From positions 288,001 through 352,000 of the forward strand of contig JBMNLI010000017.1 of the NCBI GenBank assembly GCA_050952645.1: a DNA stretch of 64,000 nt, in the 5' to 3' direction. The stretch comes from Bdellovibrionota bacterium. Its GTDB lineage: Bacteria; Bdellovibrionota_C; UBA2361; CAKMMH01. This document shows, in pieces, positions 23,597-39,158 of the stretch. The notes beneath the pieces were generated by a model. That model searched no databases and was not told where the DNA came from. It worked only from the letters and a program-made list of their open reading frames with translations. The first letter of the stretch is position 1, and each line of letters starts with the position of its first letter. The translations under genes were made by a program, and so were the position numbers.

Positions 23597-24196
23597 TTAT
23601 TTAGGTGCGATTTTAGTTAATATTTCTCTTATTTGGTGTAATTTATCTATTCCTACGAACCTTTCTTTATTGATAACGAAAGTTGGGGTATCGAAAATTC
23701 CTAAATTTTTACCTCTAGTATAAATCCCTTTAACTCGTTCTCTAATATCTGGGGAAGAAAGCTTAGATACGAACTCTCCCATCTCGACATCCATCTCATC
23801 GCATAGTTCACGCCAGAATTCTTCAGTATTAGGATTTCTTTCTTGTGTCCAGCAGTAGTCAAAAACTTTAAAATTATATTCCATTAAAAAATCCATATCT
23901 TTTGCTACCATAGCACCACGAGTGATTCTAACGGGGTCGAACTCTTCTTCGGGCCAATTAGTGGGGATAGTTAATGGGATATTATGCATTTTAGCGTATC
24001 TTTTAGCATCTTCTATTATATAAGATATTTTATCGGGATTAATATTTGCTAGTGGCACTGACTGCCCTGCGGCTTTTGCAGAAAAAGGCTGCCACAAAAG
24101 CTCTACATCGTAATCTTTGTTAAGGGCGTAAATCTCATCTAGCGCCAAATGACAAAATATATTTTGAAATGAATAAAAAACTTCTATCGTTACCAT
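23597..24196 (-). CDS. DsbA-like thioredoxin fold / HCCA isomerase family protein
   Basis: IEVFYSF..FCHLA and GIFDTPTFVINKERFVGIDKL. Confidence 0.8.
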   Translation of the reverse strand: MVTIEVFYSFQNIFCHLALDEIYALNKDYDVELLWQPFSAKAAGQSVPLANINPDKISYIIEDAKRYAKMHNIPLTIPTNWPEEEFDPVRITRGAMVAKDMDFLMEYNFKVFDYCWTQERNPNTEEFWRELCDEMDVEMGEFVSKLSSPDIRERVKGIYTRGKNLGIFDTPTFVINKERFVGIDKLHQIREILTKIAPK

Positions 24197-24339
24197 AATA
24201 ATACCTTTAAAACTATAACTTAAACAATCATTTAAAGAGTTTAGCAGATCTTTCTAAATGTTAAAATATAAAAAACATTTAATTACGTTTTAAGGTGGAG
24301 GGGGTGCTCTAAGTTTTAAATATAATTTTTAAAACATAA

Positions 24340-24368
24340 TTGACTAAAAATTGCTATTTTGAGAGAAT
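24340..24368 (+). promoter_or_regulatory. Putative sigma70-type promoter repeated upstream of the lipoprotein genes
   Basis: TTGACT-N17-GAGAAT; same at ~27018, ~29912 and ~34725; variant TTGACT-N17-GAAAAT at ~31158. Confidence 0.4.
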
Positions 24369-24444
24369 GAAAAGACTAGATGCTTTTTAAAAAGCACGAC
24401 GAAAGGTTATTTTTGTGTATTAAATCTTTGCATAGATTGTCTTT

Positions 24445-25347
24445 ATGTTAAAGAATAAGCTAAAAAGCTTTGCACAAAAAGGATTTAACTTTTTACATAA
24501 AAGGTACAGAACAATGAACCGAAAATTGTATGCATTGTATGCGATTATTCTTTCGTTTGGGATTATCGGCTCTACTATCTTAACTACAGGATGCAACAAC
24601 GGCGATAAGGGAGACACTATTTCCTCCACTCCAGCAGTTCGTGAGGATAATGGAGTAGTTGAAACTACACCTCCTCAAATTCCAAACTCGGAAGAAAAGG
24701 AAAGCGACTCTCTTCAACAAAAAGAGACTAATGAAGTTGCTACCACCGATGAGCAAAACGATGAAGCGACTCCTAACATTGCTAAAAGCGAGGAAACCGC
24801 TTCGGAAGTTAGCACCAATGAGCCTATTAGCGCGGAACTTGCAGAGATTGTAAAGGCCGTAGAAGAGCAAGGCTATTGGTTTAACACCAACGCTACTAAA
24901 TTAGAAGGCTATTGGACCTACGATGGAACTAAGCCTAAAATAATAGAAAGCGATGACAGCAGGTTAGCAGTCATACTCGACTCGGAAGATGGAATTTTTG
25001 GAAGGTTCGACAACTCATTTAGGATTAACGAAGAAGAAACCTATGCTAGTATTTTCGTATGGATAAACACGAACGACAAATCATTAGCAAGGGGAGCTTC
25101 AATACTTGAGGAATTAGCGAATAGTCCTAGGAAAAAAGCATTATATTCCATTGACGCTTGCTCACTTTATAAAAAAGTGGCATACGAACAATATGAACTT
25201 AAAAGTGGAATAACGTTTTGGAATATAAATACGTATTGCTCAGATCCAACTAAGGAATGTTTCTACGCAAAATATCCGATCGTTGTATATTTGCTTGATC
25301 GGCAGGGTGAACATAAACGATGCTTTGCCATGCTTGACTTAAAATAA
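24445..25347 (+). CDS. Lipoprotein, locus family copy L1 (likely start ATG 24514)
   Basis: Signal peptide with lipobox LTTGC, acidic linker, domain with GYW / FVWINTN motifs. Confidence 0.8.
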   Translation: MLKNKLKSFAQKGFNFLHKRYRTMNRKLYALYAIILSFGIIGSTILTTGCNNGDKGDTISSTPAVREDNGVVETTPPQIPNSEEKESDSLQQKETNEVATTDEQNDEATPNIAKSEETASEVSTNEPISAELAEIVKAVEEQGYWFNTNATKLEGYWTYDGTKPKIIESDDSRLAVILDSEDGIFGRFDNSFRINEEETYASIFVWINTNDKSLARGASILEELANSPRKKALYSIDACSLYKKVAYEQYELKSGITFWNINTYCSDPTKECFYAKYPIVVYLLDRQGEHKRCFAMLDLK

Positions 25348-25353
25348 GCGCTT

Positions 25354-25404
25354 AAGATAGAGACACAGGCGTAAAGAGACACGCCTTCCGTCTCTATCTT
25401 TTTT
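25354..25404. terminator. Hairpin terminator between convergent lipoprotein and Cys-rich genes
   Basis: aagatagagac..aggcgt/acgcct..gtctctatctt followed by a T-tract; repeated at ~28070-28120 and ~35777-35827. Confidence 0.75.
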
Positions 25405-25410
25405 ATTTTA

Positions 25411-26997
25411 TCAACTAAAACTATTAGTGCTATAATCTGATGTATTAGTGCTTTCATTACTTTCAAAACTTTGCGATGAAAATAAGGAAGTTGATGAAAC
25501 GCTTTCTGTTAAAGATGAACTGCTACTACTAGCTCCACATACCCAATATCTCGTATTAGGATCTTGCCTCCATAAATCTTCCTTACAACACATATAAACA
25601 GCATGAGGCTGATGACTTTCTCGTATAAAACCTATTTGTCCCATAGTTTCTCCATTATTTCGACACTGAGCTGGGTAATAACACCATAAATCGCCTTGGG
25701 CATTCGTATAAGTTGAACCCTGCGGACAACAACGAGTTATTTGATTTCCATAAGCATCGCTTCTAATAATAGGTATCTCTCTTGAATCGCAACAATCATT
25801 GCACGGCTCTTCACATCCCCCATTAAAAGGCACTTTCCCATCTTCGCAACAACGACTTATATCAGGATTGGCACATTTGCCATTATCACAGCACGGCTCA
25901 TCTCCACACGGCACAGGATCTTCGTTAGGGCAACAAGTATTTAATTTGCATTTACCCATTTCGCAACATTCGATTTCACCACAAGGACTACCACCATTTG
26001 GACAAGAAGTAGGTGTAGGTGTTAGAGTTTTAGTAGGCGTATTTGTTGGCACCGTCGGCGTATTAGTAGGAGTATTCGTTGGCACCGTTGGTGTATTAGT
26101 AGGAGTTACGGTAGGCGTATCCGTTGGTATCAACGTTGCTGTGTTTGTAAGTGTGGCTGTAGGCGTATCCGTTGGTATCGGCGTTGCTGTATTGGTAGGT
26201 GTATTGATTACAACACTCTCTTTTATGCAATTATATACGATATAAATATCCTCTCCTTCTTCTTGTACTTCTATACTACACGTTTCGCCATCCTCGCAAC
26301 ATAAATGCCCACACTGCCTATCAGAAGGACACGCTAAAGAAGCACTAGATAAACTTTCACTGCTAAACGTCTCAGAAGAAAAACTAAACGAGCTTTTACT
26401 CACTTTCTCACAACTAGGAATCGGGATAATCTCACCGTCTGCATTTTCTTGTAAATACGTTTTACACTCCCTCCCCTCTTCACAACAAAGATAACCACAC
26501 TGCCTCTCAGGAGGACACGCTGAAGAAAAACTAAAAGAGCTTTCACTAGATAAACTACTCTCCGAAGAGCTTTCACTTTCCGATGAGCTTTCACTTGAAA
26601 AAGAAGAAAAACTTTCACTTATAATAACTGGCGGTAAAGATGATGCTGAAGAACTTTGAGTATCACACCACCAAGCAACAACATTTCCAAGCCCATCGGT
26701 CATATAACGACACATTCCTTTCTTACAACATAAGCCAAAACAAAAATCTTCATCTGGTTTACAACCCCCAACTGGCACGCTCGAAGTGGAATCTTCACTT
26801 TCACTAGAAAAACTACTACTAGATGGATTTACTGGCGGTAGTGGTGGCTTCTTACTACTACTACTAGACGAACTACTAGAATAAGAACTAGTGCTAGGCG
26901 ACGTAATAGGAGGCTCTGGTGGCAAGCTACTTAAACTACTACTAGAAGACGAACTCTTACTAGAGCTAATTGCTAAAAATAATCGCTTCACAAACAT
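25411..26997 (-). CDS. 5'-truncated Ser/Cys-rich cassette C1 (copy of the C-terminal half of 35835-39158), with a Thr-Pro linker
   Basis: Near-identical blocks to the full gene from SSLPPEPPITSPST onward; no prepilin or signal N-terminus; no clear SD. Confidence 0.75.
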   Translation of the reverse strand: MFVKRLFLAISSSKSSSSSSSLSSLPPEPPITSPSTSSYSSSSSSSSSKKPPLPPVNPSSSSFSSESEDSTSSVPVGGCKPDEDFCFGLCCKKGMCRYMTDGLGNVVAWWCDTQSSSASSLPPVIISESFSSFSSESSSESESSSESSLSSESSFSFSSACPPERQCGYLCCEEGRECKTYLQENADGEIIPIPSCEKVSKSSFSFSSETFSSESLSSASLACPSDRQCGHLCCEDGETCSIEVQEEGEDIYIVYNCIKESVVINTPTNTATPIPTDTPTATLTNTATLIPTDTPTVTPTNTPTVPTNTPTNTPTVPTNTPTKTLTPTPTSCPNGGSPCGEIECCEMGKCKLNTCCPNEDPVPCGDEPCCDNGKCANPDISRCCEDGKVPFNGGCEEPCNDCCDSREIPIIRSDAYGNQITRCCPQGSTYTNAQGDLWCYYPAQCRNNGETMGQIGFIRESHQPHAVYMCCKEDLWRQDPNTRYWVCGASSSSSSLTESVSSTSLFSSQSFESNESTNTSDYSTNSFS

Positions 26998-27122
26998 CGA
27001 ATAATTTTTAAATATAATTGACTAAAAATTGCTATTTTGAGAGAATGAAAAGACTAGATGCTTTTTAAAAAGCACGACGAAAGGTTATTTTTGTGTATTA
27101 AATCTTTGCATAGATTGTCTTT

Positions 27123-28061
27123 ATGTTAAAGAATAAGCTAAAAAGCTTTGCACAAAAAGGATTTAACTTTTTACATAAAAGGTACAGAACAATGAACCGA
27201 AAATTGTATGCATTGTATGCGATTATTCTTTCGTTTGGGATTATCGGCTCTACTATCTTAACTACAGGATGCAACAACGGCGATAAGGGAGACACTATTT
27301 CCTCCACTCCAGCAGTTCGTGAGGATAATGGAGTAGTTGAAACTACACCTCCTCAAATTCCAAACTCGGAAGAAAAGGAAAGCGACTCTCTTCAACAAAA
27401 AGAGACTAATGAAGTTGCTACCACCGATGAGCAAAACGATGAAGCGACTCCTAACATTGCTAAAAGCGAGGAAACCGCTTCGGAAGTTAGCACCAATGAG
27501 CCTATTAGCGCGGAACTTGCAGAGATTGTAAAGGCCGTAGAAGAGCAAGGCTATTGGTTTAACACCAACGCTACTAAATTAGAAGGCTATTGGACCTACG
27601 ATGGAACTAAGCCTAAAATAATAGAAAGCGATGACAGCAGGTTAGCAGTCATACTCGACTCGGAAGATGGGATTTTTGGAAGGTTTTCCAACCGATTTAG
27701 GATTAACGAAGAAAAAACCTATCCTGATGTTTTTGTATGGATAAACACGAACAATAAACCATTAGCAAGGGGAGCTTCAATACTCGAGGAATTAGCGAAT
27801 AGTCCTTGGAACGAAGTATTATATCCCATCGACGCTTGCTCACTTTATAAAAAAGTGGCATACGAACAGTATGAACTTAAAAACGGAATAACGTTTTGGA
27901 ATATAAATACGTATTGCTCAGACCCAACCAAGGAATGTTTTTATTCAAAATATCCAATCATTGTATATTTTCATGATTGGAAGAAGAAGAAAAAGCAAAC
28001 AAAACAAACAGGACAAACAAACTGCTTTGGCATGTTAAACTTAGTTAGCTTAGAAGAATAA
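27123..28061 (+). CDS. Lipoprotein, locus family copy L2
   Basis: First ~185 aa identical to L1, C-terminal part divergent. Confidence 0.8.
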   Translation: MLKNKLKSFAQKGFNFLHKRYRTMNRKLYALYAIILSFGIIGSTILTTGCNNGDKGDTISSTPAVREDNGVVETTPPQIPNSEEKESDSLQQKETNEVATTDEQNDEATPNIAKSEETASEVSTNEPISAELAEIVKAVEEQGYWFNTNATKLEGYWTYDGTKPKIIESDDSRLAVILDSEDGIFGRFSNRFRINEEKTYPDVFVWINTNNKPLARGASILEELANSPWNEVLYPIDACSLYKKVAYEQYELKNGITFWNINTYCSDPTKECFYSKYPIIVYFHDWKKKKKQTKQTGQTNCFGMLNLVSLEE

Positions 28062-28127
28062 GCGCTTTATAGATAGAGACACAGGCGTAAAAAGACACGC
28101 CTGCCCGTCTCTATCTTTTTTATTTTA

Positions 28128-29891
28128 TCAACTAAAACTACTAGTGCTATAATCTGATGTATTAGTGCTTTTATTACTTTCAAAACTTTGCGATGAAAAT
28201 AAGGAAGTCGAAGAAACGCTTTCTGCTAAAGATGAACTGCTACTACTAGCTCCACATACCCAATATCTCGTATTAGGATCTTGCCTCCATAAATCTTCCT
28301 TACAACACATATAAACAGCATGAGGCTGATGACTTTCTCGTATAAAACCTATTTGTCCCATAGTTTCTCCATTATTTCGACACGTAGCTGGGTTATCACA
28401 CCATAAATCGCCTTGGGCATTCGTATAAGTTGAACCCTGCGGACAACAACGAGTTATTTGATTTCCATAAGCATCTCTTCTAATAATAGATATCTCTCTT
28501 GAATCGCAACAATCATTGCACGGCTCTTCACATCCCCCATTAAAAGGCACTTGCCAATCTTGGCAACAGAGACTTTCATCAGGATTAGCGCATTTACCAT
28601 TATCACAACACGGTTTATCTCCACACGGCACAGGATCTTCATTAGGGCAGCAAGTATCAGAATTACATTTATTTGGGTCGCAACAAACGTCTCCACACAT
28701 TTCTGTACCTTCACTGCATGAAGAAGAACTGCTACTACTAAAACTAGATGACGAGCTAGAAGAACTGCTTGAACTACTTGGAGATGATGAACTAGAAGAA
28801 GAGCTACTTAAACTAGATGAACTAGGTGAGCTACTCTTACTCGAACTAGAACTTAAAGAGCTAGAAGAATTGCTTTTACTAGAACTACTAGAAGAACTAG
28901 ACGAACTGCTACTACTAGGTGATAATGAACTAGAAGAAGAGCTACTTAAACTAGATGAACTAGGTGAGCTACTCTTACTCGAACTAGAACTTAAAGAGCT
29001 AGAAGAATTGCTTAAACTACTACTTTCTAAGCTTTCGCTCGAAGCTACACTTTCTAAAGAACTCTCACTAGAACTTACACTCTCTTTTATACAATTATAT
29101 ACGATATAAATATCTTCTCCTTCTTCTTGTACTTCTATACTACACGTTTCGCCATCCTCGCAACATAAATGCCCACACTGCCTTTCGGTAGGACACGCTA
29201 AAGAAGCACTAGACAAACTTTCACTGCTTAACGTCTCAGAAGAAAAACTAGATGAGCTTTCACTCACTTTCTCACAACTAGGAATCGGAATAATCTCGCC
29301 GTCTGCATTTTCTTGTAAATACGTTTTACACTCCTCCCCCTCTTCACAACAAAGATAATCACACTGCCTCTCAGGAGGACACGCCGAAGAAAAACTAAAA
29401 GAGCTTTCACTTTCACTCGATAAAACACTTTCAGACGAACTTTCCGAAGAACTCTCACTAGATAAACTACTTTCTGATGAGCTTTCACTCGAGAAAGAAG
29501 AAAAACTTTCACTTATAATAACTGGTGGCAAAGATGATGCTGAAGAACTTTGAGTATCACACCACCAAGCAATAACATTTCCAAGCCCATCGGTCATATA
29601 ACGACACATTCCTTTCTTACAACATAAGCCAAAACAAAAATCTTCATCTGGTTTACAACCCCCAACTGGCACGCTCGAAGTGGAATCTTCACTTTCACTA
29701 GAAAAACTACTACTAGATGGATTTACTGGCGGTAGTGGTGGCTTCTTACTACTACTACTAGACGAACTACTAGAATAAGAACTAGTGCTAGGCGACGTAA
29801 TAGGAGGCTCTGGTGGCAAGCTACTTAAACTACTACTAGAAGACGAACTCTTACTAGAGCTAATTGCTAAAAATAATCGCTTCACAAACAT
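28128..29891 (-). CDS. 5'-truncated Ser/Cys-rich cassette C2
   Basis: Same 5' junction (MFVKRLFLAISSSK) as C1 and C3; Ser linker and Cys blocks shared with the full gene. Confidence 0.75.
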   Translation of the reverse strand: MFVKRLFLAISSSKSSSSSSSLSSLPPEPPITSPSTSSYSSSSSSSSSKKPPLPPVNPSSSSFSSESEDSTSSVPVGGCKPDEDFCFGLCCKKGMCRYMTDGLGNVIAWWCDTQSSSASSLPPVIISESFSSFSSESSSESSLSSESSSESSSESVLSSESESSFSFSSACPPERQCDYLCCEEGEECKTYLQENADGEIIPIPSCEKVSESSSSFSSETLSSESLSSASLACPTERQCGHLCCEDGETCSIEVQEEGEDIYIVYNCIKESVSSSESSLESVASSESLESSSLSNSSSSLSSSSSKSSSPSSSSLSSSSSSSLSPSSSSSSSSSSSSSKSNSSSSLSSSSSKSSSPSSSSLSSSSSSSSSPSSSSSSSSSSSSFSSSSSSSCSEGTEMCGDVCCDPNKCNSDTCCPNEDPVPCGDKPCCDNGKCANPDESLCCQDWQVPFNGGCEEPCNDCCDSREISIIRRDAYGNQITRCCPQGSTYTNAQGDLWCDNPATCRNNGETMGQIGFIRESHQPHAVYMCCKEDLWRQDPNTRYWVCGASSSSSSLAESVSSTSLFSSQSFESNKSTNTSDYSTSSFS

Positions 29892-30190
29892 CGAATAATT
29901 TTTAAATATAATTGACTAAAAATTGCTATTTTGAGAGAATGAAAAGAAGTGTCTTAGAAAAGTTTCTTTAAGGCACACTAATTGTTTGAAATCGAAGTTT
30001 TTAAATTTTTAGAAGCTTTGATACGTATTTTTGCGTAGGATTTGCAATATATTTAAAAATAATCTTAAAAAATATTATTGTAATCTAACGCAAAACCTTA
30101 TATAGAACGGTTTTGTATAAGGTTTATATAGAGCGTTCCAAAGATATTCTTAAATATGTTTTACATGTTTGATAACTAGAAAGAAAGAAA

Positions 30191-30904
30191 ATGAATAAGT
30201 TCTCTGTCGTGTCAGCCTTGTTTGTCGTTTCCCTTTGCTTGCTTCTTGGAGGTTGCAAAGAAAAATCACCTAATGATACGAACAAGGAAGCACAGCAAAG
30301 TGTACCTACTGCTTCTGCTCCTGAAGTCAAGAAGCCTCTTTTTAACGAAGGCGATAAGGGAAAAACTGGCGACCCTGAACTCGATAGGATTATCGATGCG
30401 GTTGTAAGTAATGGCTACTACTTTGATATTGAGGCTATCCCCGAGCTTCATGGTCGTGAAAAACCATCAAAAATAACTAGTGGTAGCTCAGCTTTTCGAA
30501 TACTTGATGAAAAGCCAGAAGATTTGGGAGTTTTTTGTGAAACCTCTTGCGCTTTTCAGTTCGATGGTGAATATCGTTTAAGTGGCGTTTGGACCTTCGT
30601 CTGGGCTAATACTAATCAAATACCCTTAATTGAAGGACTAGAAGAAGCTTTACTGCTTCCTAAATTTTTGCATGAAAGGATGCAAAGATTTAGTTATAGA
30701 GATAGGGGAGGCAATCCTGGCGATTTCATCAACAATCACGTCGAAATTCCGCTAGAAGGTGGAATGACCATTGAAAACACTTGGGGAGGGGCTGGCGAAG
30801 CGAAAGAATCTTACCCCCACAAGGAAGTTGTGCGAGTTTTTGTGATTTATAATCACAAATTAAGAAAGATTGTCGGCGTATTTATCGCAAGAGAAGGGAG
30901 CTGA
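30191..30904 (+). CDS. Lipoprotein, divergent family member L3
   Basis: Lipobox LLGGC; ELDRIIDAVVSNGYYF, KPSKIT, LGVF, FVWANTNQIPL align with L1/L2 motifs. Confidence 0.75.
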   Translation: MNKFSVVSALFVVSLCLLLGGCKEKSPNDTNKEAQQSVPTASAPEVKKPLFNEGDKGKTGDPELDRIIDAVVSNGYYFDIEAIPELHGREKPSKITSGSSAFRILDEKPEDLGVFCETSCAFQFDGEYRLSGVWTFVWANTNQIPLIEGLEEALLLPKFLHERMQRFSYRDRGGNPGDFINNHVEIPLEGGMTIENTWGGAGEAKESYPHKEVVRVFVIYNHKLRKIVGVFIAREGS

Positions 30905-30991
30905 TACGCTCAAAAGCTCCTAGCGCTAATTAACGGCAAATGCTGACACCGATAACGCTTTATTAGTTTTAGTCTGTTAACAGACGCTATT

Positions 30992-31030
30992 TAAGAGAGG
31001 TCGAAAAACATCGATCTCTCTTTTATTTTT
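30992..31030 (+). terminator. Intrinsic terminator after L3
   Basis: aagagaggtcga..tcgatctctctt followed by a T-rich tail. Confidence 0.6.
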
Positions 31031-31352
31031 TCTTTACATCTTAAAAAAACTACCCTCTTAAGTCCTTATCAATTATCCAAAAAACACTTTTACAAATTAT
31101 TTATATATTTTCATTAAAAAAATACTACAGTTTTTACCTTAGAACTCGCAAAATAAATTGACTAATAATTATTATTTTGAGAAAATATTTATAAGTCTTT
31201 AGGTTGTATAATTAGGTTGTATAACTTTAAGGATTTTGGTTTTAAGGCGTATGTTTATGATGCAAAAAATAAACTTTTGCAAAGAAAGAATTTTCTATAT
31301 AGACTATGCCTGTTTTAACACTAAATTAACCTGTAAATCGAGGGATAATAAG

Positions 31353-32165
31353 ATGAAAAAAAGGTTTAACAATCTCACTATGTGCGTGATGATTATTGCT
31401 CTGGTTGCCATCAGCTTGGTAGGATGTGATGGCAAAAAACAAGGCGATGTTAATGGCGAACCTAAAGGAGACGCAATCGTTGCTACCAAAAATGCTCTAG
31501 ATATTGTGCCTCAAGAAAACGAGACGTTGCCTTCCGTTGCTTCTCCTAAAGAAGAAACTTCTAATGTGGCAAATGTTGAGACGCCGATTGCCGAAGCTAA
31601 CGTGGTACAGGATACTCAGCCACAAGCAGGCCAGCAAATTGAGCTTAAGGAAGAGCCAAAAGAAGATGCTTCTGCCGACGATAAACTTCTTACCGAGATT
31701 ATCGATGCGCTTGAAAGCAAAGGCTACTGGCTTAAGGAAGGAATTGAAAAGCCTAAGCGGATAACGTGTTCTACATCAGAAGTCGGTATTATCAAATCTC
31801 CAGAAGGTCTCGGCATCTTTGGTGAACATTATGGAGGCTTTAACTTTGATGGGGAAGCTGTAAAAACAACAGCACCATTTGTTTGGCTAAATAATAATAA
31901 ACAGCCACTTAAAGTTGGTTTTGCCAAACTTTACGATTATGCGACTAACGGTGGTGAAGAGATTGACAAAATCGACGCAACTCTATTTATGCCACTTGGT
32001 TTGGAAGTTACGCTAAAAGGAAATATAACTTATTTAGATTTTAGAGAAAGCTTTAAGCCATTTACGCCCAAATATGAAGAAGACTTTTATAGTAATCAAA
32101 GAGTTTTTCTTTGCGTAAATTGGAAGGAAGGCAATCAGCCAGTTGCTGCGTTTATGACTAAGTAA
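31353..32165 (+). CDS. Lipoprotein, divergent family member L4 (ORF track starts at 31236)
   Basis: MKKRFNNLTMC..LVGC lipobox after a gaggga SD; LTEIIDALESKGYWL, KPKRIT, LGIFG, FVWLNNNKQPL. Confidence 0.75.
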   Translation: MKKRFNNLTMCVMIIALVAISLVGCDGKKQGDVNGEPKGDAIVATKNALDIVPQENETLPSVASPKEETSNVANVETPIAEANVVQDTQPQAGQQIELKEEPKEDASADDKLLTEIIDALESKGYWLKEGIEKPKRITCSTSEVGIIKSPEGLGIFGEHYGGFNFDGEAVKTTAPFVWLNNNKQPLKVGFAKLYDYATNGGEEIDKIDATLFMPLGLEVTLKGNITYLDFRESFKPFTPKYEEDFYSNQRVFLCVNWKEGNQPVAAFMTK

Positions 32166-32319
32166 AGAAAAATAACTTAACAAATTAAGAACGCACGTAT
32201 ATAAGAGCATCTCATATTCTAAATAGAATATTTTATAAGCGAAGAAAATAATCTCAAGTATTGCTTTCTTCGCTTTTTCTTTATAAAAAGCCTTAAAAAG
32301 TAAAGAACACTACTTTTAT

Positions 32320-34704
32320 TTATCCATTTGAAGAAGGAACGCACATCATTACTGGTTTACATTCTCCATTTCCGTGTTCTCTGTGATAGCAACTATCTTT
32401 TAGGCAATTTGTGCTACAATGCTCAGCATCGTATGGTCGTCTCTGTAATATTTTTCCCTCTTTGCAAGTTGTAACACAACGATAGTTAATAAGATCAACT
32501 TCCGCATCGTCGCCATTAGGCTTGCAGCAAATATATTTTCCATTTTGAAATGACACTTCTTCAGTATAGTAATTATTACAACAACCATTAGTACAACCTT
32601 TTGGTTTACAACTCCAGCCTCCTTCAATTTGAATCGGTTCTTCCCCTTCTGACTTATTACAACACCTTTGACCATCACCAGTACAATATCCATCATCACA
32701 ACACCCCTTGCCACAAGCAGAACTGCCTTCATCGCAACACGTTGTTCCATCACCAGATAGTCGTTCATCTGGGCAACAAAAAGTGCCATTGTTTGTAGGA
32801 GTAGTGCCAAGCGCGCAACAAGATTGAACTCCTTCCACAGTTATAATTTGACTATTTTCACAACATTCTTTAGTTTCAGTGCCAATGCAAGTAGAAGTTT
32901 CTGTATTACAACACTCATTTTGGCAAAAAGTTTGATTAGCTTCGCAACAAGCTTTAGTATTTGGATTATAATCTAATCCTTCACAGCAAACTTTAACACT
33001 GTCTCCATGACAATCATTTTCATTGCAGCAAGTTTCACCACACGGTTTTTTACCATCTTCGCAACATTTATCATTTATACAATTTGTGCTTTCGCAACAT
33101 TTACCGTCACAAAAAGTTTCATTAGATTCGCAACAAGCTTTAGTATTTGGATTATAATCTAACCCTTCACAGCAAACTTTAACACTGCCACCATGACAAT
33201 CATTTTCATTGCAACAAGTTTCGCCACACGGCTTTTTACCATCTTCGCAGCATTTACCATTTATACAATTTGCGCTTTCGCAACATTTACCGTCACAAAA
33301 AGTTTGATTAGCTTCGCAACAAGCTTGAGTATTCGGATTATAATCTACTCCATTACAGCAAAGTTTATTATCGTTATGACAATTTGATGCATCACAACAA
33401 ATTCCCCCACATATATTTTGATCAGTCTCGCAACATTTCTTTTCCTTAGAACTATACTCTACCAAAAGGCTACAGCAAGTTTTCCCATCATGGCAAGCAG
33501 ATGTTTCGGTATTGCAACATGTGCTTCCGCATACAATATCTTTTTCTCCAGAGCAACACGTGCCTTCTGCGCATTTTGTTTCATCACAACATTCTTCTCC
33601 GCAAAGTATTTGCCCCGTGTCATCACAACATTCAGTATTATTTAGACACTGACCTTCTGGGCAACACCACTCTCCACATAGTGTGCCATCTCTATCTTCG
33701 CAACAGCCAAATGTATCAGCACCACTTGCGCAGCATCTAGTTTCGAGAATAGTTTCATCAACATTTTTATTATCACAACATGCTCCATCTATCAAAGTAG
33801 TGCCTTCAGAACAAGATAAAGTAGAAGAAGCAGATTCTTCACTGCTCTTACTTTCTAAACTACTACTTTCTAAGCTTTCGCTCGAAGCTACACTTTCTAA
33901 AGAGCTCTCACTAGCACTTACACTCTCTTTTATGCAATTATATACGATATAAATATCCTCTCCTTCTTCTTGTACTTCTATACTACACGTTTCGCTATCC
34001 TCGCAACATAAATGCCCACACTGCCTATCAGAAGGACACGCTAAAGAAGCACTAGATAAACTTTCACTGCTAAACGTCTCAGAAGAAAAACTAAACGAGC
34101 TTTTACTCACTTTCTCACAACTAGGAATCGGGATAATCTCACCGTCTGCATTTTCTTGTAAATACGTTTTACACTCCCTCCCCTCTTCACAACAAAGATA
34201 ACCACACTGCCTCTCAGGAGGACACGCTGAAGAAAAACTAAAAGAGCTTTCACTAGATAAACTACTCTCCGAAGAGCTTTCACTTTCCGATGAGCTTTCA
34301 CTTGAAAAAGAAGAAAAACTTTCACTTATAATAACTGGCGGTAAAGATGATGCTGAAGAACTTTGAGTATCACACCACCAAGCAACAACATTTCCAAGCC
34401 CATCGGTCATATAACGACACATTCCTTTCTTACAACATAAGCCAAAACAAAAATCTTCATCTGGTTTACAACCCCCAACTGGCACGCTCGAAGTGGAATC
34501 TTCACTTTCACTAGAAAAACTACTACTAGATGGATTTACTGGCGGTAGTGGTGGCTTCTTACTACTACTAGACGAAAAACTACTATAATAAGAACTAGTG
34601 CTAGGCGACGTAATAGGAGGCTCTGGTGGCAAGCTACTTAAATTACTACTAGAAGACGAACTCTTACTAGAGCTAATTGCTAAAAATAATCGCTTCACAA
34701 ACAT
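32320..34704 (-). CDS. 5'-truncated Ser/Cys-rich cassette C3 with a long, distinct CC-repeat tip
   Basis: First ~280 aa shared with C1, C2 and the full gene, then many CC-x-C repeats including a 186-bp internal tandem repeat; unique C-terminus. Confidence 0.75.
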   Translation of the reverse strand: MFVKRLFLAISSSKSSSSSSNLSSLPPEPPITSPSTSSYYSSFSSSSSKKPPLPPVNPSSSSFSSESEDSTSSVPVGGCKPDEDFCFGLCCKKGMCRYMTDGLGNVVAWWCDTQSSSASSLPPVIISESFSSFSSESSSESESSSESSLSSESSFSFSSACPPERQCGYLCCEEGRECKTYLQENADGEIIPIPSCEKVSKSSFSFSSETFSSESLSSASLACPSDRQCGHLCCEDSETCSIEVQEEGEDIYIVYNCIKESVSASESSLESVASSESLESSSLESKSSEESASSTLSCSEGTTLIDGACCDNKNVDETILETRCCASGADTFGCCEDRDGTLCGEWCCPEGQCLNNTECCDDTGQILCGEECCDETKCAEGTCCSGEKDIVCGSTCCNTETSACHDGKTCCSLLVEYSSKEKKCCETDQNICGGICCDASNCHNDNKLCCNGVDYNPNTQACCEANQTFCDGKCCESANCINGKCCEDGKKPCGETCCNENDCHGGSVKVCCEGLDYNPNTKACCESNETFCDGKCCESTNCINDKCCEDGKKPCGETCCNENDCHGDSVKVCCEGLDYNPNTKACCEANQTFCQNECCNTETSTCIGTETKECCENSQIITVEGVQSCCALGTTPTNNGTFCCPDERLSGDGTTCCDEGSSACGKGCCDDGYCTGDGQRCCNKSEGEEPIQIEGGWSCKPKGCTNGCCNNYYTEEVSFQNGKYICCKPNGDDAEVDLINYRCVTTCKEGKILQRRPYDAEHCSTNCLKDSCYHREHGNGECKPVMMCVPSSNG

Positions 34705-34829
34705 CGAATAATTTTTAAATATAATTGACTAAAAATTGCTATTTTGAGAGAATGAAAAGACTAGATGCTTTTTAAAAAGCACGACGAAAGGTTATTTTTG
34801 TGTATTAAATCTTTGCATAGATTGTCTTT

Positions 34830-35768
34830 ATGTTAAAGAATAAGCTAAAAAGCTTTGCACAAAAAGGATTTAACTTTTTACATAAAAGGTACAGAACAAT
34901 GAACCGACAATTGTATGCATTGTATGCGATTATTCTTTCGTTTGGGATTATCGGCTCTACTATCTTAACTACAGGATGCAACAACGGCGATAAGGGAGAC
35001 ACTATTTCCTCCACTCGAGCAGTTCGTGAGGATAATGGAGTAGTTGAAACTACACCTCCTCAAATTCCAAACTCGGAAGAAAAGGAAAGCGACTCTCTTC
35101 AACAAAAAGAGACTAATGAAGTTGCTACCACCGATGAGCAAAACGATGAAGCGACTCCTAACATTGCTAAAAGCGAGGAAACCGCTTCGGAAGTTAGCAC
35201 CAATGAGCCTATTAGCGCGGAACTTGCAGAGATTGTAAAGGCCGTAGAAGAGCAAGGCTATTGGTTTAACACCAACGCTACTAAATTAGAAGGCTATTGG
35301 ACCTACGATGGAACTAAGCCTAAAATAATAGAAAGCGATGACAGCAGGTTAGCAGTCATACTCGACTCGGAAGATGGGATTTTTGGAAGGTTTTCCAACC
35401 GATTTAGGATTAACGAAGAAAAAACCTATCCTGATGTTTTTGTATGGATAAACACGAACAATAAACCATTAGCAAGGGGAGCTTCAATACTCGAGGAATT
35501 AGCGAATAGTCCTTGGAACGAAGTATTATATCCCATCGACGCTTGCTCACTTTATAAAAAAGTGGCATACGAACAGTATGAACTTAAAAACGGAATAACG
35601 TTTTGGAATATAAATACGTATTGCTCAGACCCAACCAAGGAATGTTTTTATTCAAAATATCCAATCATTGTATATTTTCATGATTGGAAGAAGAAGAAAA
35701 AGCAAACAAAACAAACAGGACAAACAAACTGCTTTGGCATGTTAAACTTAGTTAGCTTAGAAGAATAA
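34830..35768 (+). CDS. Lipoprotein, locus family copy L5 (nearly identical to L2)
   Basis: Differs from L2 by K->Q and P->R only in the translations provided. Confidence 0.8.
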   Translation: MLKNKLKSFAQKGFNFLHKRYRTMNRQLYALYAIILSFGIIGSTILTTGCNNGDKGDTISSTRAVREDNGVVETTPPQIPNSEEKESDSLQQKETNEVATTDEQNDEATPNIAKSEETASEVSTNEPISAELAEIVKAVEEQGYWFNTNATKLEGYWTYDGTKPKIIESDDSRLAVILDSEDGIFGRFSNRFRINEEKTYPDVFVWINTNNKPLARGASILEELANSPWNEVLYPIDACSLYKKVAYEQYELKNGITFWNINTYCSDPTKECFYSKYPIIVYFHDWKKKKKQTKQTGQTNCFGMLNLVSLEE

Positions 35769-35834
35769 GCGCTTTATAGATAGAGACACAGGCGTAAAAA
35801 GACACGCCTGCCCGTCTCTATCTTTTTTATTTTA

Positions 35835-38800
35835 TCAACTAAAACTACTAGTGCTATAATCTGATGTATTAGTGCTTTTATTACTTTCAAAACTTTGCGA
35901 TGAAAATAAGGAAGTCGAAGAAACGCTTTCTGCTAAAGATGAACTGCTACTACTAGCTCCACATACCCAATATCCCGAACTAAGATCTTGCCACCATAAA
36001 TCTTCCTTACAACACATATAAACCTTATGTGGAGAATGGCTTTCTTGTATAAAACCTATTTGTCTCATAGTTTCTCCATTATTTTGACACTTAGCTGGGT
36101 TATCACACCATAAATTACCTTGAGCATTGGTATAAGTTGAACCCTGTGGACAACAACGAGTTATTTGATTTCCATAAGCATCTCTTCTAATAATAGATAT
36201 CTCTCTTGAATCGCAACAATCATTGCACGGCTCTTCACATCCCCCATTAAAAGGCACTTGCCAATCTTGGCAACAGAGACTTTCATCAGGATTAGCGCAT
36301 TTACCATTATCACAACACGGTTTATCTCCACACGGCACAGGATCTTCATTAGGGCAGCAAGTATCAGAATTACATTTATTTGGGTCGCAACAAACGTCTC
36401 CACACATTTCTGTACCTTCACTGCATGAAGAAGAACTGCTACTACTAAAACTAGATGACGAGCTAGAAGAACTGCTTGAACTACTTGGAGATGATGAACT
36501 AGAAGAAGAGCTACTTAAACTAGATGAACTAGGTGAGCTACTCTTACTCGAACTAGAACTTAAAGAGCTAGAAGAATTGCTTAAACTACTACTTTCTAAG
36601 CTTTCGCTCGAAGCTACACTTTCTAAAGAACTCTCACTAGAACTTACACTCTCTTTTATACAATTATATACGATATAAATATCCTCGCCTTCTTCTTGTA
36701 CTTCTATACTACACGTTTCGCTATCCTCGCAACATAAATGCCCACACTGCCTATCAGAAGGACACGCTAAAGAAGCACTAGATAAACTTTCACTGCTAAA
36801 CGTCTCAGAAGAAAAACTAGACGAGCTTTTACTCACTTTCTCACAACTAGGAATCGGGATAATCTCACCGTCTGCATTTTCTTGTAAATACGTTTTACAC
36901 TCCTCCCCCTCTTCACAACAAAGATAATCACACTGCCTCCAAGGAGGACACGCTGAAGAAAAACTAAAAGAGCTTTCACTTTCTGATGAGCTTTCACTCG
37001 AGAAAGAAGAAAAACTTTCACTTATAATTACTGGCGGTAAAGATGATGCTGAAGAACTTTGAGTATCACACCACCTTGCAGTAACAGAACCATTGACAAT
37101 GGTAAAGCGACAAGTCCCTATCGGACAACATAACCCCTCAAAACAAACTTCCGTATTTGGAGGGCAAACTTCTTGAGGCGTGCTCGAAGTGGAATCTTCA
37201 CTTTCACTAGAAAAACTACTACTAGATGGATTTACTGGCGGTAGTGGTGGCTTCTTACTACTACTAGACGAACTACTAGAATAAGAACTAGTGCTAGGCG
37301 ACGTAATAGGAGGCTCTGGTGGCAAGCTACTTAAATTACTAGAAGAAGAACTACTACTAGGCGACAAACTGCTTTTACTTGATGCACTTGGCAAGCTACT
37401 CTTACTACTTAAAGAACTAGAAGAACTGCTACTTGGCGAACTACTCTTGCTCGAACTGCTTTTGCTAAATGATGATGAACTCTTACTTGATGAACTACTA
37501 CTAGGTGATAAGCTTGAACTTAGAGAACTAGAAAAGCTAGATAAAGAACTCTTACTAAAACTACTACTACTTAATGAACTCCTCGAACTGCTACTTAGCG
37601 AAGAACTAGAACTTAAAAAACTAGAAGAACTGCTTTTACTAGATGAACGTGATAAGCTACTTTTACTTGAACTCGAACTGCTAATACTTGGTGATGAACT
37701 TGAACTTAAAGAACTGCTAAAACTACTTGTTGATGCACTGCTGCTACTACTAGACGAGGAACTCTCGCTAGATGAGCTACTACTTGGTGAAGAACTCTTG
37801 CTTGAAGATGAACTCTTACTAGAAGAGCTTGATGAGCTACTACTTGGTGAAGAACTCTTGTTTGAAGATGAACTCTTACTAGAAGAGCTTGATGAACTAC
37901 TACTACTAGGCGATAAGCTTGAACTTAGAAAACTAGAAGAACTACTACTAGATGAAGAACTAGAACTACTAGACGAACTAGACAAACTGCTACTACTTGG
38001 CGATAAGTTTGAACTTACAGAACTAGAAGAACTTGGCGAACTACTCTTGCTAGAGCTTTTGCTACTAGATGATGAACTTGAAGGTGAACTTAAAGATGAG
38101 CTAGAACTACTAAAACTACTACTACTTAATGAACTAGACGAACTGTTCTTACTACTAGAAGAAGAACTAGAACTTAAAGATGAGCTAGAACTACTTAAAC
38201 TGCTACTGCTAGAAGAACTTAGAGATGAGCTGCTACTAATAGATGCACTGCTACTAGATAAACTACTGCTACTACTAGACGATGAACTGCTAGATGATGA
38301 ACTACTACTAGACGAACTCCCCTTAGGTGAACTAGATGTATCGAAAATTTGCGCAGTCCTAAAAAAACCTACATGAAACGAATCTGCTATGAGAGGCTCA
38401 TCATCTAACAACTTAAATATATCTAATATTATACCAGACTTAATAAAAATCTTCCCTCCCTTCATTGTCCTAAGTTTTATCGTCTCACTTTCTTTATCAA
38501 CGGGAGCAAAATCTAAATATTCTTCCTTCTTCCACAAACTCCCTGGAAGTTTAGTAGTCTTTATACTATCATTATCTAATTTTATACCAGGAATTAAAAT
38601 AGCATACTTAGCTATACACGGCTCCCCTTTTAACTCAAAATATTTAAAGCCTAGTTGCTTAGGTGTCGCCACCTTTTTCGATAATGCTAAATTATAAGCC
38701 GTAATCCAAAATTTACATATAGTAGGACAATCTTTAGATAGAGCTTGCACCTCTGGCACTTCGCATACTTCATCTATTTCACTTCGAGTTTTCCCCCTTA

Positions 38801-39158
38801 TAGACTCACAATTAGGAACGTCTGTATCTCTTAAACCGTCTAGGCAATACTCTCTTAAAGCTACCATAAAATGAGGTGAAACATCGACTACAAATTGCAC
38901 TGGCCTATTTTCTACAGCTATTAACAAGTCTAGATTTCTCTCATTTAAACATACCATATGAAAAACAAATACGAAAACATTCGTCACTACCCATGTAAGT
39001 GCAAAATAATAAAAACAAACTATAGCCATCTCTGTTAAAATACTACCACGACTCGAATGAGACTTTTTATATTTATTTTTCATCAAATTTTTATTTTGAA
39101 AGAAATTTTTAAAGAAATCTTTCAATCGACTGTTTGAGGTTAAAAAAAACTTTAACAT
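35835..39158 (-). CDS. TadE-like prepilin with a long poly-Ser stalk and Cys-rich C-terminal tip (likely start 39083)
   Basis: MKNKYKKSHSSRG|SILTEMAIV plus hydrophobic helix is a class III signal peptide (G-1, E+5); ~330-aa Ser tract; Cys-rich modules. Confidence 0.75.
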   Translation of the reverse strand: MLKFFLTSNSRLKDFFKNFFQNKNLMKNKYKKSHSSRGSILTEMAIVCFYYFALTWVVTNVFVFVFHMVCLNERNLDLLIAVENRPVQFVVDVSPHFMVALREYCLDGLRDTDVPNCESIRGKTRSEIDEVCEVPEVQALSKDCPTICKFWITAYNLALSKKVATPKQLGFKYFELKGEPCIAKYAILIPGIKLDNDSIKTTKLPGSLWKKEEYLDFAPVDKESETIKLRTMKGGKIFIKSGIILDIFKLLDDEPLIADSFHVGFFRTAQIFDTSSSPKGSSSSSSSSSSSSSSSSSSSLSSSSASISSSSSLSSSSSSSLSSSSSSLSSSSSSSSKNSSSSSLSSSSFSSSSSSLSSPSSSSSSSKSSSKSSSPSSSSSVSSNLSPSSSSLSSSSSSSSSSSSSSSSSFLSSSLSPSSSSSSSSSSKSSSSNKSSSPSSSSSSSSSKSSSSSKSSSPSSSSSSESSSSSSSSSASTSSFSSSLSSSSSPSISSSSSSKSSLSRSSSKSSSSSFLSSSSSLSSSSRSSLSSSSFSKSSLSSFSSSLSSSLSPSSSSSSKSSSSFSKSSSSKSSSPSSSSSSSLSSKSSLPSASSKSSLSPSSSSSSSNLSSLPPEPPITSPSTSSYSSSSSSSSKKPPLPPVNPSSSSFSSESEDSTSSTPQEVCPPNTEVCFEGLCCPIGTCRFTIVNGSVTARWCDTQSSSASSLPPVIISESFSSFSSESSSESESSFSFSSACPPWRQCDYLCCEEGEECKTYLQENADGEIIPIPSCEKVSKSSSSFSSETFSSESLSSASLACPSDRQCGHLCCEDSETCSIEVQEEGEDIYIVYNCIKESVSSSESSLESVASSESLESSSLSNSSSSLSSSSSKSSSPSSSSLSSSSSSSSSPSSSSSSSSSSSSFSSSSSSSCSEGTEMCGDVCCDPNKCNSDTCCPNEDPVPCGDKPCCDNGKCANPDESLCCQDWQVPFNGGCEEPCNDCCDSREISIIRRDAYGNQITRCCPQGSTYTNAQGNLWCDNPAKCQNNGETMRQIGFIQESHSPHKVYMCCKEDLWWQDLSSGYWVCGASSSSSSLAESVSSTSLFSSQSFESNKSTNTSDYSTSSFS

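Follow-up and report, generated by a model that had tools for sequence, protein, structure and literature searches.

Architecture of Gene E

The window, a stretch of 64,000 nucleotides from an uncultured bacterium, carries at 24320–39158 a minus-strand gene, referred to here as gene E (35835–39158), followed on the same strand by three truncated relatives, the cassettes C3, C2, and C1, and accompanied by a set of plus-strand lipoprotein genes. The E protein of 1107 amino acids consists of a leader, an N-domain, a poly-Ser stalk, a shared block, the Cys modules M1–M3, a second Ser linker, tip A, and a Ser-rich tail, in that order. The original prediction gave this gene a prepilin-type N-terminus, and its coordinates, leader, and helix are all borne out by reading of the open reading frame. 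The leader (39045–39158, minus strand, residues 1–38) contains an alternative start at M26 and reads ...SSRG|SILTE at the cleavage site; its last residue, G38, does not vary when E is aligned with four homologues. The mature protein begins with SILTE, with E at +5. The hydrophobic pilin helix and the conserved N-domain, about 250 residues in length, form the family signature (38301–39044, minus strand, residues 39–286), within which codons 43–44 are encoded by the in-frame patch GAGATG (39027–39032, minus strand). The poly-Ser stalk of about 320 residues (37332–38300, minus strand, residues 287–609) leads to the shared block SSLPPEPPITSPST (37290–37331, minus strand), the modules M1–M3 (36660–37202, minus strand), and tip A (35958–36425, minus strand). 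Tip A comprises 156 residues with 28 invariant columns, 16 of which are Cys. An antisense open reading frame at 37291–38376 was rejected as an artefact of the stalk composition. Two short dispersed repeats of MITE-like character (39468–39697) lie just upstream of the E promoter region, and partial copies of them occur at more than 20 places genome-wide. Within these repeats, the summed depth of public-run contigs is high at 39513/39546.

The N-terminus had been described as TadE-like, which holds at the family level and not for E itself. E has no match to the Pfam family TadE (PF07811) at E ≤ 1 or E ≤ 10, but its homologues in two related genomes, G001 (26.7 bits) and G002 (23.2 bits), pass the cut-off of 22.9 bits; both share the N-domain, which is followed by Thr-rich repeats. 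In a protein-atlas feature search, 19 of 30 matches fall in TadE-named clusters (score 0.91), a result that serves as a lead only. No tad operon surrounds E, which sits outside any tad cluster. Flp pilin genes, TadB/C-type genes, and an A24 prepilin peptidase, for which a search had been suggested, are found elsewhere in the genome. The E product would be displayed on a Tad-type pilus.

Truncated Cassettes and Partner Genes

C3 (32320–34704, minus strand) is a 5'-truncated copy of 794 amino acids with 112 Cys, while C2 (28128–29891, minus strand) and C1 (25411–26997, minus strand) are 5'-truncated copies of 587 and 528 amino acids, respectively, both with tip A. Each begins with MFVKRLFLAISSSK as codons 1–14 (C1 26956–26997, C2 29850–29891, C3 34663–34704, minus strand) and reaches SSLPPEPPITSPST at residue 23 in all three (C3 34597–34638, C2 29784–29825, C1 26890–26931, minus strand). 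The abrupt common start ahead of the block was thus predicted correctly and is one junction. Because the junction DNA is identical in the three cassettes, a single truncation event is implied, after which the unit was amplified. Unlike the partner proteins, the cassette start has no lipobox, and its hydrophobic run of just five residues makes it unlike an export signal. The cassettes had also been credited with alternative tips, which is correct for C3, whose tip B (32323–33813, minus strand, 497 amino acids, with three 186-nt tandem repeats at 32892–33367) is unrelated to tip A, but not for C2 and C1, whose tips are 92% and 78% identical to that of E. Of these two local cassettes, C1 contributes little tip diversity and C2 almost none. 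Over the last 60 codons of tip A, 15 non-synonymous and 6 synonymous changes separate E from C2.

All the lipoprotein genes belong to a single family, in whose products the G-C lipobox is invariant and roughly 170 C-terminal amino acids make up a conserved domain. LpE (34830–35768, plus strand, likely start M24 at 34899) is convergent with E. Lp2 (27123–28061, plus strand) has two non-synonymous differences from LpE, and Lp1 (24445–25347, plus strand) is 90% identical to it; Lp3a (31236–32165, plus strand, convergent with C3) and Lp3b (30191–30904, plus strand) are divergent members with 27% and 22% identity to LpE. Every Cys-rich open reading frame is convergent with a gene of this family, in agreement with the original prediction, and C3 is paired with two. 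The lipoprotein may be the cognate partner of the tip.

Repeats at the locus are far in excess of chance: the segments 26213–28875 and 33920–36582 form a 2663-nt repeat of 98.8% identity, and several 300-nt repeat families have 3–4 copies each. Such repeats raise the question of whether the tandem units, and a tract of E nearly identical to a copy on contig C14, are artefacts of metagenome assembly, produced by strain variants or by repeats that were collapsed or joined into chimeras. The genome is indeed a metagenome-type assembly of 17 contigs, 93.75% complete, so that the placement of its repeats is provisional; strains of the organism with 3–5% divergence are present in the public-run contigs (runs X1 and X3), and 2.6-kb repeats at 98.8–99.9% identity are hard to place. 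However, the units differ structurally: C1 has a Thr/Pro linker in place of the Ser linker (26005–26211, minus strand), C3 is distinguished by tip B and a different pair of lipoproteins, and the Ser linkers are of unequal length. Unique flanks are continuous on both sides. A contig of run X4 spans 26937–27670, from the C1 junction into Lp2, and a 2718-nt contig of run X2 covers 30236–32953, both with no differences, while the C14 copy has flanks of its own, formed by type II secretion pseudopilin genes and by the gene of a secreted protein. We regard an artefact as highly improbable.

A Dispersed Family of Disabled Copies

A search of the genome with the N-domain, combined with tblastn and reading of open reading frames, identifies 13 E-type copies at 10 loci, among which E alone is intact. 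The picture of one gene with three cassettes is accurate within the window, although overall it is merely the local part of a 13-copy, mostly dispersed family. The leader is absent in six copies (C1, C2, C3, and those at C7:37132, C14:19237, and C10:28257, where C7, C14, and C10 are contigs). In five of the seven leader-bearing copies, a +1 patch, GAAACAG, replaces GAGATG right after G|SILTE and places leader and body in different frames; both forms are present in public runs (places 39027/39028). The other in-frame leader-bearing copy, C17:120721–124562, is broken by further frame breaks. The copy at C10:333–336k retains 252 nt of the region upstream of E at 98.8%, so that some "silent" copies are not promoterless, and an intact distant paralogue at C12:32113–36108 (1331 amino acids, N-domain 24% identical) means that E is not the sole large TadE-type pilin of the genome.

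These observations bear on a reading in which a lineage-specific adhesin family, expanded by segmental and tandem duplication, is in the course of disappearing as truncation, frameshift, and mobile elements disable its members, with E as the last survivor and any mosaic tracts as a useless by-product of recombination between similar repeats. At least four kinds of defect account for the 12 copies out of 13 that are disabled. In C6, C12, and C10:28257, one and the same N-domain site is occupied by a MITE end or group II intron, as is the truncation point of the C14 copy, and such insertions, or extra frameshifts, in several disabled copies look like decay and not like a maintained archive. The junction common to C1–C3 is expected of simple tandem duplication starting inside a gene. 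The family is also tiny and young: of 124 genomes in the phylum, 3 were found to contain it, and among 1.84 billion representative proteins there are six matches, half of these six being fragments from the same species. Against decay, no in-frame stop occurs in the seven long disabled frames, or in E, over 528–1239 codons of a genome with 31% G+C, whereas the other two frames of those sequences contain 19–284 stops. Between C2 and C1/C3, the region from the block to M3 has a dN/dS of 0.16–0.22 at a dS of about 0.15, and by a rough estimate neutral change of that size would bring several stops; moreover, the same +1 patch recurs in five copies in place of a separate lesion in each. A dN/dS of 0.45–0.6 in tips, N-domains, and intact lipoprotein genes does not separate used from unused copies and weighs against an archive. 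On balance, we consider decay unlikely.

Beyond the window lie nine dispersed loci, several of which encode different types of tip along with a further family of partner genes, and the pairing of tips with partner genes suggests a further possibility, which we hold to be quite unlikely. The tips would be effector or kin-recognition domains of the polymorphic-toxin type, and the exported protein encoded alongside would serve each as its cognate receptor, chaperone, or immunity factor. Truncated tips behind E would represent relics of displacement, retained mainly for useful partner genes, and recombination would be occasional and not a switching device. Tips and partner genes do move as units: tip A types accompany one lipoprotein gene, the two tips at C7:37132 accompany two in nested order, the long tip B of C3 also has two, and a second tip group is always followed by a co-directional secreted-protein gene of another family. 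That family has seven full-length matches as well as fragments, among them a tandem series at C10:327970–331872. Tip and lipoprotein identities drop together (92/100, 78/85, 59/52, and 38/35%), but parallel divergence is expected of any co-duplicated gene pair and is no proof of binding. Orphans downstream of a full gene, in the same orientation and starting at a shared block, match CDI/Rhs orphans as far as these are covered by the source excerpt (PMC3150448). On the other hand, no toxin, enzyme, or other Pfam domain is detected at E ≤ 1 in six tip and two partner sequences, nor in eight whole open reading frames, and fold comparison of the lipoprotein gives no informative match. The tips are repetitive CC-rich modules with a structural or adhesive look, and the lipoprotein genes are convergent, not co-directional.

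Mosaicism and Recombination

Gene E is a mosaic of tracts that are 98–100% identical to three different disabled copies. The segment 39460–38400 is 98–99% identical to C10:333–336k. The segment 38560–36010 is about 100% identical to the C14 copy, with two differences between 38500 and 35938, and this tract ends inside the N-domain on one side and exactly at the Ser tail on the other. Apart from one patch, the segment 36610–34960 matches the C2 unit at about 100% identity. The M1 DNA of E shares 72–73% identity with C1–C3 and C7a, against about 100% with the C14 copy. At the informative sites of C1, C2, and E, the pattern changes five times or more within 2.9 kb: columns 800–1400 of the alignment contain 170 sites with C2=E and none of any other pattern, while in columns 1400–1600, C1=C2 holds at 16 sites, C2=E at 5, and C1=E at 1. 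At the sequence level, these patterns show that segments have been exchanged between copies by homologous recombination. This part of the proposed recombination stands, whereas movement of tips into E goes a step further; E could have been the donor instead of the recipient of the near-identical tracts, and no case of the E 5' half joined to another tip is seen in the assembled contigs of public runs. C3, with homology to E limited to the 5' side, could be installed solely by irreversible deletion. As predicted, recombinase, reverse transcriptase, and transposase domains are absent from the 12 scanned nested or antisense open reading frames and the eight main ones at the locus. RecA is encoded elsewhere in the genome.

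A Possible Archive of Spare Tips

The reading that we tentatively prefer, with confidence a little short of even, is that E is the sole expression-competent member of a recombining 13-copy pilin family, in which the disabled copies serve as a reservoir of tips that are moved into E. The E product would be a modular TadE-type minor pilin with a stalk of some 320 residues, then disulfide-rich modules in series, and a tip at the end. C3, C2, and C1 would be 5'-truncated units of modules, tip, and lipoprotein gene, tandemly amplified behind E after one truncation, and, together with the nine dispersed disabled copies, would constitute a silent reservoir. Modules and tips would be shuffled among copies and into E by homologous recombination of the RecA type, acting at the shared block, in the Ser-coding linkers, and in the lipoprotein gene. 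Gene conversion would be available to C1 and C2, whose two sides are both homologous to E; alternatively, a single crossover in the 5' block would delete 2.7 kb (C3), 7.5 kb (C2), or 10.4 kb (C1). The outcome would be an altered binding target of the Tad-type pilus tip, with a possible role in adhesion or in prey or partner recognition. The disabled yet readable copies beside E look like a stock of replacement tips with which pilus adhesion could be altered.

Comparison with Known Systems

Silent-cassette variation systems include Neisseria pilE/pilS, Borrelia vlsE/vls, and Mycoplasma synoviae vlhA. They combine one expressed gene with many 5'-truncated or unexpressed open copies, in which conserved blocks flank the variable parts. 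The E family resembles them in this arrangement, as far as its copies are unexpressed, in its near-identical mosaic tracts, which imply gene conversion, and in having no dedicated recombinase at the locus. In contrast to these systems, E is a TadE-type minor pilin with a 320-residue Ser stalk and Cys-knot-like modules, and not a major type IVa pilin or a lipoprotein; its cassettes bring their own intact partner genes; and many archive copies still have a leader and an upstream region, a common +1 patch being what shuts them off. Switching in the E family is, by comparison, putative.

The orphan CT/immunity modules of CDI/Rhs systems are, in the excerpted account, truncated C-terminal modules that lie behind a full gene in the same orientation, with a shared start motif and a small neighbour gene (PMC3150448). 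The layout is alike, and a tip swap at the shared block is possible in the same way. Relative to that account, no toxin domain can be recognised in the E-family tips, the partner gene lies convergently on the opposite strand and encodes an exported lipoprotein, and the carrier is a pilin and not a two-partner-secretion or YD-repeat protein.

The modular type IV pilins PilB and PilC of Streptococcus sanguinis, according to the abridged source, have a functional adhesion domain grafted C-terminally (PMC8179133). E shares the pilin module with a C-terminal graft, although its graft is a poly-Ser stalk with disulfide-rich repeats of no known family, and is multi-copy and mosaic.

A similar display principle is that of the Myxococcus xanthus Kil/Tad "Tips", minor pilins that equip Tad-type pili with exposed, variable C-terminal domains. 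These domains are proposed to determine prey range, and analogues are reported in Bdellovibrionales (PMC12075869, PMC12428579). There, four alternative three-gene clusters encode interchangeable tip complexes, and DNA rearrangement is not described in the excerpts of these sources. E would likewise be a minor pilin with a variable C-terminal domain, but a single gene encodes it, away from any tad cluster, and it has a putative DNA-level archive of spare modules. The claim of novelty is narrowed accordingly: interchangeable Tad minor-pilin tips are known from Myxococcus (PMC12075869), whereas, in comparison with the excerpted accounts, the cassette layout is new.

Organization of the array

The Cys-rich open reading frames (ORFs) occupy a 15-kb array block that is bounded by a DsbA-like gene (23597-24196) and by a 248-aa ORF that precedes mnmE and yidC, and its G+C content is 0.37-0.39 compared with 0.26-0.33 across most of the window. 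All of them lie on the minus strand: E, the intact pilin-like gene (35835-39158, 1107 aa), and its 5'-truncated copies C3 (32320-34704, 794 aa), C2 (28128-29891, 587 aa) and C1 (25411-26997, 528 aa). Five lipoprotein genes on the plus strand (LpE, Lp1, Lp2, Lp3a and Lp3b) are each convergent with a Cys-rich ORF, facing its 3' end. The ORF coordinates confirm the layout of the original prediction, in which one gene and three truncated copies on one strand face convergent lipoprotein genes. The pairing that it proposed holds insofar as every Cys-rich ORF has such a neighbor, but C3 has two rather than one.

From its N-terminal side, E is composed of a leader ending at G38, the motif SILTE with a hydrophobic helix, and a conserved N-domain that extends to residue 286. 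A poly-Ser stalk (residues 287-609) leads to the shared block, SSLPPEPPITSPST, at residues 610-623, which is followed by three Ser-spaced small Cys modules (M1-M3), a second Ser linker, a 156-aa tip, and a Ser-rich tail. The first 14 codons of C1-C3 are identical, the shared block is reached at residue 23, and upstream of their junction all three have identical DNA, which belongs to the upstream region of the next, divergently oriented lipoprotein gene. Because the three copies share one junction and its upstream DNA, a single truncation event followed by amplification of the unit is indicated. The tip of C3 (tip B, distinct from the tip A of E, C1, and C2) contains three tandem 186-nt (62-aa) repeats (32892-33367). 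None of the eight main ORFs of the block matched a Pfam family above threshold; the remaining ORFs, all antisense or nested, had no Pfam matches either, and the antisense Leu/Glu-rich ORFs were rejected as genes. A PMT-type protein O-mannosyltransferase fused to an NPCBM domain is encoded at 45135-47186 (+), 6 kb from E, and could glycosylate the Ser stalk.

A genome-wide family with one intact member

The genome (1.95 Mb in 17 contigs, with the window at C17:288001-352000; labels such as C6 or C10, when given with coordinates, denote contigs) was searched with residues 1-286 of E, which returned 24 matching pieces. Together with tblastn and ORF reading, this N-domain search identified nine further loci with E-type copies: C6:22740-25807, C7:37132-40599, C7:161444-162011, C10:26843-28257, C10:194421-198261, C10:332064-335725, C12:88722-90681, C14:19237-22557, and C17:120721-124562. 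The idea of one gene with three cassettes thus describes the local arrangement correctly, but it captures only the local part of a family of 13 copies at 10 loci. Only one of the 13 copies, E, is intact, a count to be read alongside an intact distant paralogue at C12:32113-36108 (locus L021, 8113-12108), which encodes 1331 aa with a canonical leader, a Ser stalk, and an N-domain 24% identical to that of E, its Cys-rich body belonging to the second tip group.

The leader is absent in six copies (C1, C2, C3, C7:37132, C14, and C10:26843) and kept in seven, five of which have GAAACAG in place of the GAGATG of E (39027-39032). This +1 patch lies directly behind the prepilin cleavage motif and is not a homopolymer slip, and its replacement of GAGATG puts leader and body out of frame in these five copies. 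The second copy with an in-frame leader, C17:120721, is broken further on. One N-domain site is interrupted by a short repeat in the C6, C12, and C10:26843 copies. In the C6 copy, a group II intron RT (C6:23862-25187, locus L026) lies within the short repeat, which is inserted after ...CIAKYGILI of the N-domain, and remnants of the same insertion interrupt two other copies (C12:89289-89572 and C10:28257). The end of this repeat also borders the C14 truncation and recurs just upstream of E. Two short dispersed MITE-like repeats adjoin E upstream, at 39468-39697, with more than 20 partial copies across contigs. A diversity-generating retroelement was rejected, since the only RT found in the family is of the group II intron type and is located on a different contig.

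Plain decay of a young family would account for disabled copies of this kind, and we regard it as somewhat unlikely. E and the seven long disabled frames checked contain no in-frame stops over 528-1239 codons, and the remaining two frames of these copies contain 19-284. From the shared block to M3, dN/dS is 0.16-0.22 when C2 is compared with C1 or C3 (dS about 0.15) and 0.4-0.5, driven by M1, when E is compared with the cassettes. For the tips, the N-domains, and the intact lipoprotein genes it is 0.44-0.62, a level that does not separate used from unused copies. The divergence could also have originated in functional genes, with its import into the cassettes a later event.

Exchange of segments between copies

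Binned identity along E, compared with the other copies, yields three different best partners. The tract 39460-38400, which takes in 252 nt ahead of the start, matches C10:333-336k at 98-99% identity, and the tract 38560-36010 is about 100% identical to C14, with only 2 differing positions across 38500-35938. The C14 tract ends within the N-domain and exactly at the Ser tail, past which C14 runs into further Ser repeats and a different tip. One patch aside, the tract 36610-34960, which comprises the 3' part of the tip, the tail, and LpE, matches the C2 unit at about 100% identity. The DNA of module M1 of E shares 72-73% identity with M1 of C1-C3 and C7:37132. The flanks of C1 and C2 are homologous to E on the 5' side (96-98%) and on the tail-plus-lipoprotein side (90-100%), and C3 is homologous on the 5' side only.

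Across 2.9 kb compared among C1, C2, and E, the pattern of informative sites changes at least five times. C1 equals C2 at 72 sites in columns 0-400, where other patterns occur at 3, and C2 equals E at all 170 sites in columns 800-1400 and at all 53 in columns 1800-2400; in columns 1400-1600, the counts are 16 for C1=C2, 5 for C2=E, and 1 for C1=E. A 2663-nt repeat (26213-28875, 98.8% identical to 33920-36582) unites the 5' half of a cassette, a lipoprotein gene, and the 3' half of a tip, and its ends fall in Ser-coding spacers. In the copy at C12:89551, the front of one tip type is joined to the end of another. At the level of sequence comparison, these mosaic tracts and pattern switches demonstrate exchange of segments between family copies, in tracts that do not tell donor from recipient. 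RecA is encoded elsewhere in the genome.

E as a probable TadE-type pilin

The leader of E reads ...SSRG/SILTE, with Glu at +5 of the mature end and a hydrophobic stretch next, and G38 is invariant among five aligned homologues. The N-domain model is poor (pLDDT 47.6) and places a helix over residues 38-83 at low confidence. In the related genomes G001 and G002, homologues 37% and 25% identical to E open with textbook TadE leaders and have the same N-domain, followed by Thr-rich repeats that extend past the contig ends. These homologues score 26.7 and 23.2 bits, respectively, against the TadE family PF07811, both above its gathering score of 22.9 bits, and the distant paralogue C12:32113 scores 16.7 bits. 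E itself gives no match to PF07811 at E <= 1 or E <= 10, and a search of its own genome (6 matches at E <= 10) misses the E locus. Leader, hydrophobic stretch, and homologues support the claim of a TadE-like pilin; the family profile does not match E. A feature search of a protein atlas found TadE-named clusters in 19 of 30 hits (score 0.91), which serves as a lead only. An 832-aa protein with a TadE-type leader, encoded at C3:49198-51696 (locus L020, 7198-9696), passes PF07811.

Tad machinery, for which the original prediction had proposed to look, is encoded elsewhere in the genome: a single A24 prepilin peptidase at C17:101578, Flp genes at C12:110011 and C9:54460, and TadB/C-type genes at C12:113-114k and C9:50-51k. 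A type-B leader ORF was rejected as a small Flp-like pilin because its hydrophobic run is only about 13 residues long. The E locus is flanked by housekeeping genes (DsbA-like, MnmE, and YidC) and does not lie within a tad operon. In our reading, E would work like a TadE-type minor pilin, although the protein lies outside formal Pfam membership and its locus outside any tad operon.

Tips and partner genes

The tip A types of E, C2, and C1 have one lipoprotein gene apiece, the long tip of C3 has two, and in C7:37132 two lipoprotein genes accompany two tips in nested order. Tip and lipoprotein identities drop in parallel (92/100, 78/85, 59/52, and 38/35%), which co-duplication alone would explain. 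Behind the tips of a second group (C10, C12, C14, and C17:120721) the next gene encodes a secreted protein of another family, about 200-225 aa long and always co-directional with the Cys-rich tip. Its members are found at C10:327970-331872 (a tandem run), C12:90824, C10:193534, C14:22806, C10:26081, and C17:119764.

Such pairs might instead be orphan effector and partner modules, which we consider unlikely. Six tip sequences matched no Pfam family at E <= 1, an absence compatible with a toxin; the lipoprotein genes in the window are convergent, and partners of the CDI/Rhs type are co-directional. Neither partner family has a Pfam match. The lipoprotein model is of intermediate quality (pLDDT 62, core 70-90); it gave no Foldseek match at E <= 0.001, and its best score in a wide VIA search, Z 6.3 to serpin sheets, falls within the stated noise range of the tool. 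A protein atlas gave no usable match to the lipoprotein. No described family includes the N-domain, the tips, the lipoprotein, or the second partner family.

Distribution in relatives and populations

Relatives were found only in 3 of 124 genomes of the phylum, the genome studied included, and as 6 hits among 1.84 billion representative proteins. Homologous-protein searches with residues 1-290 of E and with the tip of C3 scored nothing, the query proteins themselves included, and a search for lipoprotein homologues recovered the protein itself and one 81% variant only. Related loci were found neither in metagenome contigs (protein and alignment queries) nor in genome contigs, and the lipoprotein was found in none of the three related genomes G001-G003, which are 80-92% complete. 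The left flank (thioesterase, MarC, UDPGP, phosphoesterase, and DsbA) is conserved in all three. Beyond the DsbA orthologue, G001, a genome of the same genus (contig C72, locus L032), has a restriction-modification-type island, whose large ORFs appear helicase- and methylase-like by eye, where the genome studied has the array; hence, no orthologous array was available for comparison, and this spot is apparently a variable one.

Metagenome runs from at least four studies, with the labels anaerobic digester, wastewater, and bioreactor, contain the flank of the locus. Populations were compared through the assembled contigs of four public runs (X1-X4), which cannot bridge the repeats and whose coverage gaps are not readable as absence. 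These contigs show 0 differences from the assembly over unique parts and across one cassette junction, and they reveal strains that are 3-5% divergent; both leader forms (39027/39028) are seen across the four runs. All contig joints listed have sides of 21-38 letters within Ser-coding repeats, and the joint from 26962 to 37827 (X1 and X2, side 25) is most simply explained by the C7 copy aligning in two pieces. At 37626, contigs of X1, X2, and X4 exit the Ser stalk and run into AT-rich sequence without a counterpart in the assembly when as many as 2 mismatches are allowed, so an unassembled truncated copy or a structural variant exists. With a cassette junction recovered exactly, we consider it highly improbable that the array is an artefact of assembly. 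The seven C3 variants listed (5 non-synonymous and 2 synonymous) lie in internal repeats and are too few to use. None of the runs that contain the stretch is on record as RNA, and a promoter and terminator scan was at chance level (47 sites against 46.1 expected).

Interpretation and comparison with known systems

We tentatively interpret the truncated copies as a possible reservoir of spare modules and tips for the sole active gene of a recombining, modular pilin family of the TadE type. The interpretation originally offered for the locus is partly supported: it is borne out in the recombination among copies and is widened to a genome-wide family, and the Pfam TadE profile does not match E. 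A bolder version, which we hold to be doubtful, is programmed two-level variation of a Tad-pilus tip protein, by patch switching and by module and tip shuffling, in an uncultured and possibly predatory or epibiotic bacterium. At the first level, only one family member at a time would have the 6 nt after the prepilin cleavage motif in the in-frame form, and micro gene conversion of the patch would switch the expressed locus, for example, to the otherwise open 1239-codon copy at C10:194421-198137. At the second level, Ser-coding linkers and shared blocks would serve as recombination joints through which disulfide-rich modules and tips are shuffled into the active gene; the cognate exported partner genes would move along, and the pilus would be retuned in its specificity for prey, host, or kin. 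Even if only decay is at work, the locus is a clear natural example of a small genome in which a surface-protein family expands, undergoes gene conversion, and decays.

A literature search found no description of cassette variation in Tad or TadE proteins, though one may exist all the same. Display of variable domains on the tips of Tad pili is already known from Myxococcus, in which recent work suggests that these tips define prey range (PMC12075869); a DNA-level archive of cassettes on such a pilin was not found. The Kil-type Tip of Myxococcus is encoded by a cluster of three TadE/F/G-like minor pilin genes, whereas the E locus has a single pilin-like gene. If the reservoir is real, a Tad (type IVc) minor pilin would for the first time be known to vary by a cassette-type system, one that lies outside host-associated pathogens; low-complexity Ser-coding linkers would act as its recombination joints, and an archive of tips held in DNA would be a new way to diversify Tad-tip recognition.
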